A stretch of 50,018 bases of DNA from Fibrobacter sp. (lineage in GTDB: Bacteria; Fibrobacterota; Chitinivibrionia; Chitinivibrionales; Chitinispirillaceae), in contig JAAYEB010000355.1 of assembly GCA_012728995.1 (NCBI GenBank), positions 1-50,018 on the forward strand. The letters run 5' to 3'. Positions 2,943 through 28,103 of this stretch are shown here, piece by piece. Each line of letters starts with the position of its first letter. Position 1 is the first letter of the stretch. The position numbers and the translations under genes were made by a program. A model generated the notes under the pieces. It was not told the origin of the DNA. It made no database searches and worked only from the letters and a program-made list of their open reading frames with translations.

Positions 2943-4004
2943 ATGAGAGTTATTTTCATAACAAGTATCATTATTCATACTGTACTAAGTTTGTGCAATG
3001 CACAACAAAAGGTTGGCGGCGCTATAACTCAGGATACCAGATGGAGAGCTGAAAGCGGGCCATATAATGTAGTATCGGATCTGATAATTGAACGCAATGC
3101 ACGCCTTACAATCAACCCCGGAACACAAATAATTATTTCTACCCCAAACGATACCGATAGTTTGAAAGCCACCCAGGATAACAGACAATTAATTTCAATA
3201 AAGGTTTATGGAGTTTTGCAATGTATCGGACGAATGAACAAGCGGATCACAATTGCCCCCGCAACATCCGGAAACTTCAATACATGGCAAGGAATCATAC
3301 TTGATGGTACAAACGGAGATTTTACAGAAATTGCATTCACAGATATAGCAGGTGCATGCAATGGAGTTGAAATTTCTAAAAGTAATCCGCTGATCCGGAA
3401 TTGTATTATCGAATACAACCATATTGGAATATATTGTAAAAATCGGGGGAACAGCCGGATTTATAATAATGTTATTGTTTATAACAGGGCATCTGGAATA
3501 AGAAACGAGTTGTCGAATCCTGTTATATTTAATAATATTATTGCTCATAATCACAATAATGGAATTCAGAATGACAGTTATTCAAACATGGTGATTGAGT
3601 ATAATTGTATTTACGGTAATCTGGATGGAAATTTTTTTGACTGCAACCCTGAACTTGGTATTGAAACAAAAACCAACAAAAACAACGACCCGGTTGATAT
3701 AGCGTATAACATTTTCAAAGATCCTGTTTTTTCTGGTTCTGTATCCGATTCTATTGCAGCAGAGCAGGATGTAAGAATTCCCACGAATCTTTCAAAAGTT
3801 AAAGACACAGCTCTGGCAAAAATTATCCAGTCGGGAAAAACAGTAAAGCCTCTGAAAAAAACAGGACAATCTGGCAGATACACTCTTTCCGGATATTCCC
3901 CCTGTATTAACGCTGGTAATCCGTTAAAAAAATTCAATGATATGGATGGTTCGACAAATGACTGCGGAATTTATGGTGGTCTGGAGTTTTTCCGTGAATT
4001 TTAA
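2943..4004 (+). CDS. Secreted right-handed parallel beta-helix repeat protein (NosD/pectate-lyase-like fold)
   Basis: Signal peptide. Multiple PbH1-type repeats (IEYNHIGIYCKN..IYNNVIVYNRASGI..IFNNIIAHNHNNGIQN..IEYNCIYGN). Confidence 0.6.
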   Translation: MRVIFITSIIIHTVLSLCNAQQKVGGAITQDTRWRAESGPYNVVSDLIIERNARLTINPGTQIIISTPNDTDSLKATQDNRQLISIKVYGVLQCIGRMNKRITIAPATSGNFNTWQGIILDGTNGDFTEIAFTDIAGACNGVEISKSNPLIRNCIIEYNHIGIYCKNRGNSRIYNNVIVYNRASGIRNELSNPVIFNNIIAHNHNNGIQNDSYSNMVIEYNCIYGNLDGNFFDCNPELGIETKTNKNNDPVDIAYNIFKDPVFSGSVSDSIAAEQDVRIPTNLSKVKDTALAKIIQSGKTVKPLKKTGQSGRYTLSGYSPCINAGNPLKKFNDMDGSTNDCGIYGGLEFFREF

Positions 4005-4015
4005 AAAGGGAAAAA

Positions 4016-4047
4016 GCCCTGGCACAATAACCCGTGCCTGGGCTTTT
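4016..4047 (+). terminator. Rho-independent terminator-like hairpin (gccctggcac/gtgcctgggc, one mismatch) plus a TTTT run, downstream of the beta-helix gene
   Basis: Stem-loop and T-run read directly from the sequence. Confidence 0.4.
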
Positions 4048-4109
4048 GATATACCCCATCATCCTGATAACCATTCTGCATAATACAATCTTTATTTCAC
4101 CAGTATTAC

Positions 4110-5009
4110 TCATTTCGTTTCAGAAACTGGAACAGATCTTTCCTTTGTCATTACAAAGCTTTGAATTTTTTGTTCACAGACATCTTTAGCTATTTTCAAC
4201 AATTTTTCTACCCTGTGGAAAAGGTACTCCAACTCTTCTTTCTGGATTTTGTAATTCATGTCATACCGTGCTTCTGTGTAAGCGTGTTTAAGCCGTAAAA
4301 AGCAACGTTTCTGAAACTCATTTTGAATTGGAAATATAGTCAGGAACTGATGATCCTGATCAATTACAAGTTTACCAAGTTTTTCGATATCGTGAATCCT
4401 GGGTTTGTATTGGGTAAACGTAAGCAGTATTGCAGCATATGTTCTTTCGACGACCTGATGAAGTTCGAAAACTGCAATTCTGTATTGTTTTTTTGACATT
4501 GCATACTTATGCTGATCAAAATACCCCAAAGCACTGTCATACCAGTTGTTAAAATCCCGCTCTGCAATAGCTTTTCTCTCTGCAGGTGTGAGTTTTTTAC
4601 GTTCAGCAAATTTGAATGATCCACTGTCGTACAGTACAATTCCTTCTTTGACAATATCGGAGAAAAAATACTGTCCTTCTGACAGTTTTTTGTTTACTTC
4701 TGCTATTCCGTGAGCAATAATGCTTACGTCTGTTTTTATACTTTTGCTCTGATGAATGGTCTGCTCCAGTTTTTCCCATAATCTCATATTTGCAGTACCG
4801 TTCTTTTTAACAACAACCAGAATATCCATATCACTTTTATATTCATAAGTGATATGACCCTCTTTGTATTTGTCTTCAACCCAGTCGCCACGGGCATACG
4901 ACCCAAAAAGAATAATTTTTTCTGCGTTTACAGATTTTTTTATGATCGATGTAATCTCGGAAAGCTCCCGCCGCTTTTCTTCAGGAAGATGATTTAATCG
5001 TGTATCCAT
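4110..5009 (-). CDS. Fused minimal nucleotidyltransferase (MNT) and HEPN domain protein
   Basis: N-terminus carries the 'ILFGSYARGDW...SDMDILVV' Pol-beta NTase signature (GS..RG...D.D). The C-terminal helical region carries a 'RCFLRLKHAY' R-x6-H-x-Y HEPN-type motif. Confidence 0.6.
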   Translation of the reverse strand: MDTRLNHLPEEKRRELSEITSIIKKSVNAEKIILFGSYARGDWVEDKYKEGHITYEYKSDMDILVVVKKNGTANMRLWEKLEQTIHQSKSIKTDVSIIAHGIAEVNKKLSEGQYFFSDIVKEGIVLYDSGSFKFAERKKLTPAERKAIAERDFNNWYDSALGYFDQHKYAMSKKQYRIAVFELHQVVERTYAAILLTFTQYKPRIHDIEKLGKLVIDQDHQFLTIFPIQNEFQKRCFLRLKHAYTEARYDMNYKIQKEELEYLFHRVEKLLKIAKDVCEQKIQSFVMTKERSVPVSETK

Positions 5010-21947: not shown

Positions 21948-22399
21948 TGAACATAAAATACGAACAATCTATTAATCTTTTTTGAAATAGTAAAGATTAT
22001 TTGGGGCTAAAGGCTTCTGTTTTCCCGCTAACGGGACCACCTGGCACTTTTAGTGCAGCTTAAGACTTGGTTTTGGGGGCACGCACGAAGTCTGGTTGCA
22101 GTATAAGATTACCTTATAACTGACTTCCATAGCATTTATTTTTATTCTTTCTTCAACTTCTACCCCCAGTCCCTCTTCTCTCACAGGAGATGGGGGTCCG
22201 AAAAACATTAATGAATACCAGGAATAAACTGTAATAGCTTATACATAAACCTATACTTTATCCACTTCAGTGGATTAAGAAACACAAGCTCTCCGCGGCC
22301 GTTATGTTGAGCTTCACCTGCACCAAAGAAAAGCAGCTTTTATTGTTCGAGTTCCGCTAACCTCATTTACTTTGTAAAATTCAAATAAGATTTTCATGT

Positions 22400-22468
22400 C
22401 CGCCGAGCGCACACGACCCCCGCGGTAGTTCATTGCAGCTCTGAAACTCCTGTTTGGGGGCGTGTGGT
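22400..22468 (+). repeat. Module C copy 1: long hairpin cgcacacgacccccg...[~35 nt loop]...gggggcgtgtg
   Basis: An 11 bp GC-rich stem with a single-nt bulge. Further copies at 23159-23228 and 23799-23868. Loop substitutions differ between copies while the stem is preserved. Confidence 0.7.
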
Positions 22469-22837
22469 AACATTTGAATAGTTCCAAATTAAAGAGAATT
22501 TAGAAACCAATCAGAAATAATCGCAATAAAATTACAAACAATCGGATAAAATCGGAAACAATAAAATAGAAATTACAAACTTTCCAGTATTAATGAATTG
22601 AACAATTAAGAATATAATCAAATTTTCTTGCTTGTTTCCACTTCAGTGAATTAAGAAACACAAGCTCTCCGCGGCCATTATGTTGAGTTTCACCTGCACT
22701 TAAGAAAAGCAGCTTTTACTGTTCGAGTCCCGCTGTACTCATTTACTTATTAAGCGAGGATAAAAAATGTTTTCGAGCGGGCGAGTTTAAAAGCTGCGTA
22801 CTTTTTTAGACCCTAAAAATTTTACTTCTTTTTTTAT

Positions 22838-23015
22838 GTGCAGGTGATTAGCGAAACATGGCCGCCAAGGGCATTTTGTCATTACCATTCTTTAACCGTA
22901 AGGTGTTTAGCCTTCGGCTTTGCTATATTATATAATTTTGCGGTTTGGGTACTTTTTTGCCCTGGAAAAAGTACCTCGTCGTTCGGGCGCGAAAGCCCGT
23001 ATAATTTATTTTTAC
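22838..23015 (+). repeat. Module B copy 1 (the second copy is at 23567-23745). Contains a UUCG-loop hairpin (agccTTCGgct), a GNRA-like hairpin (gggcGCGAAAgccc), and a segment that is the inverted complement of part of module A.
   Basis: The two B copies are ~95% identical. 'gtgcaggtgattagcgaaacatggccgcc' is the approximate reverse complement of the module A segment 'ccgcggccgttatgttgagcttcacctgcac'. Confidence 0.65.
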
Positions 23016-23158
23016 TACCATTCTTTATATAATGTAAAATTCAAATAAGATTTTCATGTTCGCCGGGCGCACACGACCCAGCTTTAATAATGACAATTTT
23101 TCAAATGATAAGTTTTATGTTCGCCGAACGCACTTTTTGATTTTAAAAGATTATCTGG

Positions 23159-23228
23159 GTCGCCGAGCGCACACGTCCCCCGCGGTAGTTCATTGCAGCT
23201 CTGATAATCCTTTTTGGGGGCGTGTGGA
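23159..23228 (+). repeat. Module C copy 2
   Basis: Same hairpin as 22400-22468, with a single A to T change in the stem (cacacgTccccc). Confidence 0.7.
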
Positions 23229-23798
23229 AACCTGTGTATAGTTACGGTTTACAGGAAAATCGGAAACCAATCAGAAATAATAGGATTAAAATTACAAACA
23301 ATCGGATAAATCGAAACCAATAAGATAGAAATTACAAACTTTCCAGTATTAATGAATTGAACAATTAAGAATATAATCAAATTTTCTTGCTTGTTTCCAC
23401 TTCAGTGAATTAAGAAACACAAGCTCTCCGCGGTCGTTATGTTGAGCAGCACCTGCACCAATGAAAAGCAGCTTTTTTGTTGGAGTCCCGCTGTACTCAG
23501 CGGCGATTTTAAAAGCTGCGTAATGACTAAAGTCATAAAATTCTTTTTTACATTCCATTCTTTTTCTGTGCAGGTGGTAAGCGAGACATGGCCGCAAGGG
23601 CACTTTTGTCATTACCATTCTTTAACCGTAAGGTGTTTAGCCTTCGGCTTTGCTATATTATATAACCTTGCGGTTTGGGTACTTTTTTGCCCTGGAAAAA
23701 GTACCTCGTCGTCCGGGCGCGAAAGCCCGTATAATTAATTTTTTACTACCACTCTTAAAAAATAATATTATTTGAAATTAAGAATTAAGATCATCTGG

Positions 23799-23868
23799 GT
23801 CGCCGAGCGCACACGACCCCCGCGGTAGTTCATTACAGCTCTGTAACTCCTGTTTGGGGGCGTGTGGA
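23799..23868 (+). repeat. Module C copy 3
   Basis: Same hairpin as the other C copies. The loop reads 'cattacagctctgtaact'. Confidence 0.7.
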
Positions 23869-23996
23869 ATCCTGTGAATAATTCCTGTTTACCAGAAAAT
23901 CAATAAAACAACTCCCTAATATCCACTATACTAACTCACCAAGAACCCAGATTGCCGGTTCACCCGGAGTTATGTGCTCGGCTGCGCCTACGCGAA

Positions 23997-24120
23997 CCGG
24001 CTTATGCGCTCGGCGTATAAAGTTAATATCTTTATCTGGTAATAGGCTTATGCGCTCGTCGTATAATGTAAATATCTTTATCTGGTAATAGGCTTATGTG
24101 CTCGGCATAACAAATTATCC
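23997..24120 (+). repeat. Iteron-like tandem ~46 bp repeats (ggcttatgcgctcggcgtataaagttaatatctttatctggtaatag, about 2.5 copies)
   Basis: Direct tandem repetition read from the sequence. Each unit carries the near-palindrome ttatgcgctcggcgtataa. Confidence 0.7.
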
Positions 24121-24261
24121 TCACTGTAATTTAATAGTCGGGACTTGTGCAGTCGGCGTAACATAAATATCCTTATTCTTATTCTATTCTATAAACAGGA
24201 TAATAATAGTAAAGATTATTATCAGCTAAAGACTTCCTATACAAAAAATAAATTTGGACAT

Positions 24262-25466: not shown

Positions 25467-26594
25467 ATGTTCGGTAAATCTATTCGTCTTTTCAAATTAG
25501 CAGGTTTTCAAATCAGTATTGATTTAAGCTGGTTTATTCTTTTTTTTCTTATCTCCTGGTCGCTTGCATCCGCTGTATTCCCCTATTTTATTTCTGGCCT
25601 TGAAAGTACAACCTACTGGATAATGGGAATCACAGGTGCGCTCGGACTTTTTGCGTCTATAGTGTTTCATGAATTATCCCATTCACTGGTAGCAAGGCGT
25701 TTTGGTCTTCCGATGAAAGGGATTACCCTTTTTGTATTCGGAGGAGTTGCAGAGATGACCGAAGAGCCTCCAAGCGCAAAAGCTGAATTTTTCATGGCGA
25801 TTGCCGGTCCGCTTGCAAGCATATTTTTGGGATTAATTTTACTTGGACTAACCTCATTAGGACGATCCCAGGCCTGGAACAGGCCATTTGTAATGGTGAT
25901 AAACTATCTGGGTTCACTAAACATAATTCTCGCCATATTCAATCTTATACCTGCATTTCCTCTTGATGGCGGCCGTGTGTTAAGATCTATACTCTGGCAT
26001 TTTAAAAAAGATTTAAACAGGGCTACACGTATTTCGGCAAACATTGGCTCTTTTTTTGGCATTGTTTTAATTGTTGTCGGGATTATCTCTTTTGTAACCG
26101 GAGCCTTTATCAGCGGAATCTGGTGGATTCTTATCGGTTTTTTCATAAGAAATGCAGCGCAGATGTCTTACCAGTCGGTACTTGTGAAAAATTATCTTGA
26201 AGGAGAAAAAATTCAAAAATTCATGAATACCAATATGATTACCGTACCATCAGAAACACCTGTTGACAAGTTTGTTGAAAATTATCTTTACCATTACCAC
26301 TATGCCATGTTCCCGGTTGCACAGGACCATAAGATTTCGTGTATAACCACTCAGGAAATAAAAACAGTTCCCCGTGAAGAGTGGAGCACTCACTCTGTTG
26401 GCGAACTGGCACAAAGCTGCTCCACAGACAATGCGGTGAGTATAGATGACGATGCGATGAAAGTGCTTACAACAATGAACAGAACCGGAAAAAGCCGTTT
26501 TATGGTTATAGATCACGAAAGTAATCTTGTTGGAATAGTTACTTTGAAAGATATGATGAAATATTTGTCTGTGAAAATGGAGTTAAACAAGTAA
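25467..26594 (+). CDS. M50-family (site-2 protease-like) zinc metalloprotease with C-terminal CBS domain pair
   Basis: 'FHELSHSLVARRFG' HExxH in a TM helix, 'FNLIPAFPLDGGRVL' LDG motif, and a C-terminal CBS pair ('LVGIVTLKDMMKYL'). Confidence 0.8.
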   Translation: MFGKSIRLFKLAGFQISIDLSWFILFFLISWSLASAVFPYFISGLESTTYWIMGITGALGLFASIVFHELSHSLVARRFGLPMKGITLFVFGGVAEMTEEPPSAKAEFFMAIAGPLASIFLGLILLGLTSLGRSQAWNRPFVMVINYLGSLNIILAIFNLIPAFPLDGGRVLRSILWHFKKDLNRATRISANIGSFFGIVLIVVGIISFVTGAFISGIWWILIGFFIRNAAQMSYQSVLVKNYLEGEKIQKFMNTNMITVPSETPVDKFVENYLYHYHYAMFPVAQDHKISCITTQEIKTVPREEWSTHSVGELAQSCSTDNAVSIDDDAMKVLTTMNRTGKSRFMVIDHESNLVGIVTLKDMMKYLSVKMELNK

Positions 26595-27047: not shown

Positions 27048-28103
27048 TCAAAGCAAATTCCCGGCTAACTCATATTTCACCTTGGTCTCATACTCACCGC
27101 CAGCAATTATTTCTGCAATCCGGTACAACCGTATTTGGGTTTCCTGTCTGGTCATTACAGCGAAACCGTGCGGTTCGTTTAAATATTTCAGAGGACCTTT
27201 TGCCAGGCTTCGTGAAGCAACAAAATCATTATGTGAAGAAATTCGTGAGTGTAAAAGATCATTCGCCTGGTCCAGAAATTTTTTCTGCTGCCCAAGTATC
27301 ACGGGTGCAAATCCCTTATCGATTTCAACACCGATACTGCTTCGCCCAGATGCAATTGCAGCAAGAGATGTTGTTCCGGTACCTGCAAAAGGATCCAGAA
27401 TAGTATCTGAATAAAGCGAATACATATTAATTAACCTGTATGCCATCTCTAACGGAAAAGCTGCGCTCCGGTTACGCAGTTCCCTGTTATTCAAATTCTG
27501 AATCACTCCTTTAAAATCCCAGATATCAGAAAACCATTTATTACGTTCTTCCCAAAAAAACGAACTTTCCATTCTCTTATTTTTATGTAACGGATCTGAA
27601 AAATCTCTTTTTGGTCCTTTCCTGAAAATAAGGATATACTCATGCTCCAGTGTTACATAAGCCCCTGATGGCAGCATGCCGGATCCCATAAACTTGTTTG
27701 GTGCATTTGTAGTTTTACGCCAAAGTATAACCGGAAGAGCATCAAAACCAATATCAAGAAATGCAGAAATAATTCTTGCATGATTGGGATATAACCGGAA
27801 TCTGCCATTAATTGTCCGGGTTGCATCACCGATATTGATACAGGCAAATGATCCGGTTTTCAAAACCCGATAAAGCTCATTCCAGGTTTTATCAAGTTCA
27901 TGATGCATTGCTTCAAAAGCACTCTGCCCATCTTTGCGAACCAGGGCATCATTTACTTTAGAAGAGATTGAAGAAAATGATTTATCCCACATCTGAATCA
28001 TTGGATAAGGTGGTGACGTTACAACAAGATCTATGGATTCATCATTAATTTCACATAAATTCCTTGAATCACCAATTATGGTTTTGTGTGTTGTATTAAT
28101 CAA
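27048..28103 (-). CDS. Beta-class N4-cytosine/N6-adenine DNA methyltransferase (SPPY motif suggests m4C), apparently an orphan
   Basis: Motif IV 'DLVVTSPPYP' precedes motif I 'LDPFAGTGTTSLAA', which is the beta-class order (PF01555-like). No restriction-endonuclease-like ORF on either side. Confidence 0.75.
   Translation of the reverse strand: MINTTHKTIIGDSRNLCEINDESIDLVVTSPPYPMIQMWDKSFSSISSKVNDALVRKDGQSAFEAMHHELDKTWNELYRVLKTGSFACINIGDATRTINGRFRLYPNHARIISAFLDIGFDALPVILWRKTTNAPNKFMGSGMLPSGAYVTLEHEYILIFRKGPKRDFSDPLHKNKRMESSFFWEERNKWFSDIWDFKGVIQNLNNRELRNRSAAFPLEMAYRLINMYSLYSDTILDPFAGTGTTSLAAIASGRSSIGVEIDKGFAPVILGQQKKFLDQANDLLHSRISSHNDFVASRSLAKGPLKYLNEPHGFAVMTRQETQIRLYRIAEIIAGGEYETKVKYELAGNLL

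Follow-up and report, generated by a model that had tools for sequence, protein, structure and literature searches.

The window analysed here is a stretch of 50,018 nucleotides from Fibrobacter sp. (contig JAAYEB010000355.1, assembly GCA_012728995.1), a member of the Chitinispirillaceae in the phylum Fibrobacterota, and our subject is the cluster of repeats that occupies the space between two convergent genes at positions 21948-24261. The left-hand gene is the last of an operon with Band_7, MMPL and LolA-like members, and the right-hand gene is hypothetical. This gap is the sole large one free of open reading frames (ORFs) in the window, the second largest measuring ~606 bp. A first-pass annotation, made from the letters alone, had correctly singled it out as an outlier, but its figure of less than 450 bp for the other spacers was slightly too strict. 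Its reading that no convincing coding sequence lies here is borne out, as the longest ORFs within the gap (52-99 aa) have no Pfam match. All 2314 bp are 100% identical between a JGI and an ENA assembly, which are independent of each other, and eight or more further assemblies break off within the region. We can therefore take the sequence as real and rule out an assembly artefact; the region is also repetitive enough to break assemblers.

A repeat finder and alignments agreed on the architecture that the first-pass annotation had read: three copies of module A, two of B, three of C and two of D, placed where it had put them and in the order A-C-D-A-B-C-D-A-B-C. The ~760 bp tandem duplication that it described was likewise recovered, with a measured spacing of 759-760 bp and 82% identity over ~712 nt. 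To this map we add that B starts further left than noted, at ~22780, that the region carries two truncated C heads beyond the three full C copies, and that both flanks, which had been thought unique (22002-22205 and 23925-24136), are repeat modules too. The 12-mer CGCCGAGCGCAC, allowing up to two mismatches, is matched nine times in the window against 0.63 times expected by chance; five matches on the plus strand and three on the minus strand, these at the right end, fall inside the region, and the remaining one lies outside it, at 25636. Within the window, the modules are confined to the region. The description of the hairpin loops as UUCG and GNRA-like is not borne out by the predicted folds, which give a triloop and a hexaloop.

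Matches to a 20-mer core of module C were present in 73 metagenome stretches, from which ~54 distinct loci (numbered here with the prefix L) were left after four GC-rich chance matches and duplicates had been dropped; their GC content of 0.33-0.43 is as in the window. All related loci were fetched in this way, via module C. Most come from four digester metagenomes holding two strain groups of one lineage, and they make ~0.4 Mb of genome visible, with long ORFs serving as proxies for gene calls. Among the 125 C matches in the loci, 57 are near full length, and a single metagenome has the C head motif at least 54 times. Judged by coverage with matches, nearly all of ~22000-24100 is found again in other loci: A is matched 28 times, the parts of B 7-24 times, C 60-110 times and D 13-15 times, and modules E and R and further left-flank pieces also match. 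Module order and orientation at these loci are the same as in the window, with recurrent C-D-A, C-E-A, A-B and B-C junctions, and tandem arrays exist elsewhere too (five C units in L031; A-B twice in L022/L032). Nearly every full C copy (47 of 49) is intergenic, that is, placed between long ORFs, in either orientation relative to its neighbours, and the genes flanking C loci are ordinary chromosomal genes. Altogether, at least five families (C+D, A-B, E, R and the left-flank modules) are found again at ~50 further intergenic loci, with relative order and orientation kept. The features of the region and of related loci are collected in Table 1.

Table 1. Features of the repeat cluster, its flanks and related loci; coordinates without a locus prefix are those of the window.
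Feature	Coordinates	Strand	Remarks
ORF-poor gap, 2314 bp	21948-24261		between convergent genes
Outer-membrane-protein-like gene, 427 aa	20664-21947	+	final gene of Band_7/MMPL/LolA-like operon
Hypothetical gene, 305 aa	24262-25179	-	right-hand neighbour, convergent
32-nt direct repeat bracketing the cluster, left copy	21986-22017	+	first 16 nt identical to 24205-24220
Weak terminator-like hairpin	22003-22017	+	3' of the outer-membrane-protein gene, within left 32-nt repeat
Left-flank modules	22002-22110	+	TGGGGCTAAAGGCTTCTGTTTTCCCGCTAACGGGACC, then degenerate C-like half; dispersed, copies in L021, L036, L037, L044, L027
Module E	22140-22205	+	CCCCC...GGGGG hairpin; at other loci directly between C and A
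A1, truncated A	22236-22365	+	5' half only, without B partner (profile positions 8-125); ~25-nt conserved leader, CCACTTCAGTGG hairpin
C1	22388-22495	+	head TCATGTCCGCCGAGCGCAC; 11-bp GC stem, 1-nt bulge, ~37-nt variable loop
D1	22496-22637	+	AT-rich non-coding extension of C, short internal repeats; dispersed, 9 further copies aligned
A2 + B1-left	22638-22878	+	long interrupted hairpin ~22663-22878
B-middle	22879-22943	+	optional ~65-nt piece; 0, 1 or 3 tandem copies at other loci
B1-right	22944-23030	+	covarying hairpin GGGTACTTTTT/AAAAAGTACC, invariant hairpin CGGGCGCGAAAGCCCG, conserved TATAAT..TTTTTACTACC tail
Truncated C heads, two	23033-23080, 23094-23133	+	
C2	23148-23255	+	
D2	23256-23395	+	
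A3 + B2 (left, middle, right)	23396-23760	+	second copy of the A-B element
C3	23788-23895	+	left half of C-R unit
Module R	23925-24020	+	hairpin GCCGGTTC...GAACCGGC at 23954-24001, then inverted head motif at 24005-24015
46-nt tandem repeat	23999-24158	+	~3 copies and 1 degenerate; also present in L078
32-nt direct repeat bracketing the cluster, right copy	24205-24236	+	
CCGCGG in A	22295-22300, 22672-22677, 23430-23435		
CCGCGG in C	22420-22425, 23180-23185, 23820-23825		
Rpn-like genes	L036:221-1213, L066:107-1075, L045:470-1501, L053:27-1016	-, -, +, +	
Rpn-like fragments	L064, L074, L079, L085		
Tyrosine recombinase gene	L027:3442-4824	+	461 aa; adjoins modules
Truncated fragments of the L027 recombinase	L068:11095-11490, L075:13165-13473		adjoin modules

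In the A-B element, the right part of A and the left part of B form one long interrupted hairpin of 44 pairs, with a folding z of -5.6 on the plus strand versus -4.2 on the minus strand. Across 17 copies, 97.4% of cells pair, compared with 35-43% when the partners are slid, and four pairs (nine cells) are changed on both sides, a number of cells that none of 500 shuffles reached. G.U pairs occur in 55 cells of 20 columns and A.C in 5 cells of 4 columns, an excess which argues that pairing is maintained on the plus strand as a single strand. Together, the compensatory changes and the G.U bias point to a single-stranded form, which could be RNA or single-stranded DNA. The first hairpin of B-right exists in three mutually compensating stem versions, the hairpin of R shows compensatory changes as well, and the hairpins into which the units fold are kept by compensatory and G.U-compatible changes on the plus strand. 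Where the first-pass annotation took kept stems as the mark of selection on RNA structure, the pattern holds for the A-B hairpin, the first B-right hairpin and R but not for C, whose stem is nearly invariant with essentially no covariation (covariation term -0.09).

The second hairpin of B-right is GC-rich and invariant, with a conserved T-rich tail 3' of it, and the ~25-nt leader upstream of A is conserved across varied contexts. The tip of the A-B hairpin comes in two versions, and truncated or rearranged A-B copies are common (A1, L072, L064 and L076). Modularity shows in the optional B-middle, in the alternative tips of the hairpin and in heads that are duplicated. A type I toxin or small protein encoded on D's minus strand was considered and rejected because the frame of the hydrophobic ORF is not conserved, being broken by frameshifting indels among nine D copies.

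Module C begins with the head TCATGTyCGCCGAGCGCAC, which leads into an 11-bp GC stem with a one-base bulge and a variable loop of ~37 nt. One head is common to at least three bodies: the hairpin with the short loop, another version whose loop is long and AT-rich, and module R. The long-loop version is a second C subtype with the same head and stem, whose loop is built of AAATTCGAAA-like short repeats resembling those of D; it was seen at L019, L026, L032, L033, L038, L040, L061, L064, L065, L067, L068, L071, L072, L076, L079, L080, L082 and L085. The array in L031 (170-2320) consists of five head-to-tail copies of a ~244-nt unit, made of C and a further module ending ...TTCGAAGGCAACACTG, and it is here alone that the C stem has a clear compensatory change (CCCAT/GTGGG). 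Where C faces R, the two form units of ~235-330 nt bounded by ~20-nt inverted heads ATCATGTnCGCCGAGCGCAC, which we observed in the window (~23790-24015, ~235 nt) and in L018, L025, L053 and L074. Each copy of the 46-nt tandem repeat (23999-24158) carries the inverted head motif within the near-palindrome TTATGCGC-TCG-GCGTATAA. The half-site GCGCATAA in R resembles the XerC arm of E. coli dif; the arrangement is inverted, and a dif/Xer site was not adopted. We also observed that the palindrome CCGCGG is conserved where the variable loops begin, in both A and C modules, and that an orphan N6/N4 DNA methyltransferase gene (27048-28103) lies 3 kb from the region with the CCGCGG sites.

It is homologues of the outer-membrane protein that assign the window to the Chitinispirillaceae. 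In two genomes with 59-62% protein identity, a spacer of ~200 bp and then different convergent genes come after the outer-membrane-protein gene; this makes the region lineage-specific and places it at a synteny breakpoint. The first-pass annotation had proposed a comparison of syntenic loci, with close relatives possibly having the two convergent genes directly adjacent; the region is absent from the two genomes at 59-62% identity, in which the convergent genes are different ones. The contig of the only close relative (96% identity) stops 116 nt past the stop codon, and no empty site was recoverable via this genome and the two more distant ones. When orthologous loci from the two strain groups are aligned, colinearity at ~92% identity extends as far as the repeat cluster, at which the alignment breaks, as seen for L035 against L061/L051 and for L033 against L078. 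Between L035 and L061 the next long ORF past the cluster also differs, so that clusters appear to coincide with rearrangement breakpoints. In these strain comparisons the sites are rearranged, not empty, and turnover between strains at the clusters is rapid.

The sequences match no family in the collections searched. A covariance-model scan, which the first-pass annotation had recommended, gave zero Rfam 15 matches at gathering score in the whole 50 kb window, and at E <= 5 the region had two Rfam matches only, both far under their families' gathering scores. Scans for tRNA and tmRNA found none, though GTTCGAGTCCCGC in A resembles a tRNA T-arm. No match was obtained by blastn against phage and plasmid collections or by scanning viral contigs with the A, B and C cores, and a scan of the region for sigma-70 promoters and terminators revealed no enrichment versus shuffled sequence. 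A CRISPR array was rejected, as the repeat units measure 100-760 nt and the stretches between units are themselves repeats. As to the surroundings, the window (1-50018) has no tRNA gene and no Rfam match at gathering score despite the housekeeping genes metG, recJ, argH and prfC, and a fused nucleotidyltransferase-HEPN protein of toxin-antitoxin or defence type is encoded on the minus strand at 4110-5009, amid housekeeping genes.

The only recurrent mobile-type protein near the repeats is an Rpn/YhgA-like nuclease (Pfam PF04754). To our knowledge, no DNA site has ever been defined for the Rpn PD-(D/E)XK nucleases. The genes near the repeats form two subfamilies that are ~27% identical, with paralogues within each 83-96% identical, and C copies oriented like the gene, and often followed by R, lie both upstream of these genes and 40-130 nt past their stop codons. 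At L053, positions 1441-1725 are a truncated, RpnS-like duplicate of the 3' part of the gene, followed by C and R. In published work, rpn toxin-antitoxin genes have variable four-residue repeats and truncated downstream duplicates, and defined ends are reported to be lacking (PMC10400941, PMC5350276). The genes here resemble them (PMC10400941) in both respects, the proteins having variable four-residue repeats (GIEK or KLEG) and the truncated downstream duplicates lying beside C copies. The association is one of adjacency only. An Rpn pseudogene remnant in 21948-24261 was looked for and rejected, none being found, and an IS-like arrangement, with an Rpn gene inside an inverted-head pair, was rejected as well, the genes sitting outside such pairs. 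Rpn homologues at 61-65% identity in other organisms have none of the modules nearby. In the unrelated metagenome that contains L089, ~940 nt of non-coding DNA (3921-4858) come after an Rpn homologue (65% identity). There a ~28-nt inverted repeat, GGGGGCAATGCTGTTGGCTTAAGCTTGA / TCAAGCTTAAGTCAACAGCATTGGGGAC, surrounds several small GC hairpins; the stretch looks like a different structured repeat region beside an rpn gene. A second protein of interest, the L027 tyrosine recombinase, has an extra N-terminal region of ~185 aa and matches XerA and integron-integrase models best, scoring under every curated cut-off (180 versus 265 bits when judged as an integron integrase). The 50 kb window contains no recombinase gene.

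On balance we favour, as the probable explanation, that non-autonomous interspersed mosaic repeats, specific to one uncultured lineage of the Chitinispirillaceae (Fibrobacterota) and settled in intergenic DNA all over its chromosome, are clustered in the region and were amplified there by recombination between direct C copies. The first-pass annotation had held that the feature class could not be named from the sequence. It can: these are interspersed mosaic repeats of the kind of BOX, bacterial interspersed mosaic elements (BIMEs) and MITEs (miniature transposable elements with inverted repeats), even though the sequence family itself has no Rfam, phage or plasmid match. Among the identities that had been put forward, a non-autonomous mobile element or satellite comes closest, whereas a locus-specific RNA gene and a regulatory scaffold are ruled out by the genome-wide dispersal of every module; we saw no evidence of a locus-specific function. 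The elements may spread, or may once have spread, in trans as hairpin-forming single strands, in the manner of repetitive extragenic palindromic (REP) sequences, REPINs or IS200-type ends, or through MITE-like recognition via the heads. The spreading enzyme was not found in the ~0.4 Mb of sequence reached. Several elements would have landed in the spacer between the two convergent genes, where insertions cost little, and unequal recombination between direct C copies could then have duplicated the ~760 bp C-D-A-B unit and left the truncated heads. If transcription reads through from the flanking genes, the probable role of the hairpins is only that of passive barriers at RNA 3' ends or of insulators.

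Several observations weigh against this interpretation. Strand-specific conservation of structure fits a transcribed functional RNA just as well. No target-site duplication is recognisable at the ends of C or of C-R units, and neither a duplication nor an empty site is definable because modules almost always abut other modules. The A-B element has no clear terminal inverted repeats. In the ~0.4 Mb covered, the genes between facing heads encode ordinary enzymes, a methyltransferase and an MTHFR-like one, and an autonomous element sharing these ends was not found. The covariation statistics are inflated, since the copies are related and come from one lineage (two strain groups); the retrieval of loci via C makes the copy numbers of the other modules conditional on C, and a search pattern based on C forces the invariance of its 5' arm. 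That all contigs derive from the same organism is, moreover, something we only infer.

The main rival takes up the point about strand specificity. Here A-B would be a multi-copy gene of ~330-400 nt for a structured non-coding RNA (ncRNA), in which a 5' hairpin and the long interrupted one are followed by two or three small hairpins and a tail rich in U, with C and D as spacer, promoter or regulatory modules, and the window would hold two complete genes and a truncated third in tandem, an arrangement comparable to that of small RNAs such as NsiR1 in cyanobacteria. The compensatory changes, the preponderance of G.U over A.C on the plus strand (55 versus 5 cells), the difference in folding z between the strands and the leader conserved 5' of A all suit such a gene, as does the succession in B-right of a covarying hairpin and an invariant GC hairpin just 5' of a T run, which is terminator-like on the plus strand. 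Yet that stem and the T run are 8-9 nt apart, neither the sigma-70 nor the Bacteroidota consensus is a fit for the conserved leader, no convincing promoter is present (sigma-70 sites being no commoner than in shuffled sequence), and no Rfam family was matched, both hits in the region at E <= 5 being far under gathering score. Truncated and rearranged copies are common, and a B-middle that may be missing or triplicated, like the alternative tips, has the look of a decaying or modular repeat. We therefore regard an ncRNA gene as unlikely, while taking it seriously. A unique structured RNA or protein-binding scaffold in the service of the flanking operons is scarcely credible, and so is an assembly artefact: within the 50 kb window the modules do occur here alone, but dozens of copies sit at unrelated loci, the region is absent from the nearest genera, and two independent assemblies are identical.

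It has also to be considered whether C serves as a site of recombination, with what lies from one C copy to the next (D-A-B here, Rpn genes elsewhere) being shuffled as cassettes, in an integron-like or pdif-like arrangement served by the Xer/integron-integrase-like tyrosine recombinase or by the Rpn PD-(D/E)XK nucleases, both of which are encoded beside C copies. Direct C copies flank Rpn-like genes of two subfamilies (L036, L066, L053, L074 and L085) just as they bracket D-A-B in the window; C has a bulged hairpin and heads repeated in tandem, synteny is lost at the clusters, and the 461-aa recombinase adjoins modules, as its fragments do at two other loci. Nevertheless, we consider cassettes decidedly improbable, since the AAC/GTT boxes that attC sites have are missing from C, many C copies stand alone and may point either way between ordinary genes, and the recombinase scores under every curated cut-off and has no counterpart in the window. 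The Rpn genes, for their part, lie outside the inverted-head pairs, and have homologues (61-65%) elsewhere without the modules; for rpn genes in general, published work could define no ends (PMC10400941). A bolder proposal, which we rate as rather improbable, is that the modules belong to an undescribed mobile or recombination system acting via single-stranded hairpins, in which the 20-nt head ATCATGTnCGCCGAGCGCAC would be what an enzyme recognizes, with the Rpn PD-(D/E)XK nucleases encoded in several copies nearby as one possibility, and A-B would be a new structured RNA or single-stranded DNA element of ~350 nt riding on the system.

With interspersed mosaic repeats as our preferred interpretation, an apparently orphan, giant structured RNA locus becomes explicable as a pile-up of repeats. 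Such repeats, long known in Proteobacteria and streptococci, exist in Fibrobacterota too, in an elaborately modular form. They break short-read assemblies, most contigs ending within them, and mark synteny breakpoints between strains. The strand-specific conservation of A-B and the adjacency of C to Rpn genes could bear on how repeats spread and on what Rpn nucleases recognize.

Among known systems, integron cassette arrays and clusters of attC sites lacking integron-integrases (CALINs) share with these loci bulged hairpin sites in the same orientation that separate short units, some of them gene-free, and an integron-integrase-like recombinase near some copies. Unlike in integrons, most copies are solitary and scattered, and neither an integrase nor attI is present at the window locus; attC sites were rejected, the R''/R' boxes (RYYYAAC ... 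GTTRRRY) being absent at the C boundaries in 47-50 aligned copies. The elements are also small, non-coding, highly base-paired and present in many dispersed copies, as are MITEs such as Correia, ERIC and RUP. The C-R units, whose ~20-nt inverted heads may be termini, and the set of related elements with a common terminal sequence also resemble MITEs. They differ from MITEs in that no target-site duplication or parent insertion sequence was found and A-B has no clear terminal inverted repeats, and compensatory changes and a G.U bias within a hairpin would be unexpected for a cut-and-paste element of double-stranded DNA.

REPINs are mobilized by RAYT Y1 transposases; none was seen among the recurrent families in 128 flanking ORFs, a list that leaves out families with a single member. 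The REP/BIME and REPIN families are intergenic GC-rich hairpins that form mosaics with linkers and show selection for structure on one strand (PMC2817692, PMC3116915, PMC3333891). Our modules share with them GC-rich hairpins in an AT-richer genome, dozens or more copies, intergenic mosaics and one-strand structure selection. Unlike REP, a palindrome of 20-40 nt, C has an 11-bp stem around a ~37-nt loop, there is no GTAG/CGTC tag at its head (GTAG occurs within the loop), and the copies in a cluster face one way instead of alternating.

BOX of Streptococcus pneumoniae is an interspersed composite, boxA-boxB(n)-boxC, found alongside other repeat families and without a known transposase of its own (PMC3049150). 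Apart from their phylum, our elements differ from BOX in their size (~310-400 nt versus ~150 nt) and in that several families are joined head to tail in composites of 650-760 bp. In its manner of working, the region comes closest to BOX and to the REP/BIME mosaics. The likeness to BOX, drawn from descriptions, is one of functional analogy, homology across phyla not being expected, and it lies in these traits: a modular intergenic composite whose outer modules pair (A with B-left, over 44 pairs) and whose middle varies in number (0, 1 or 3 copies of B-middle), with other repeat families alongside and no transposase of its own identified here.

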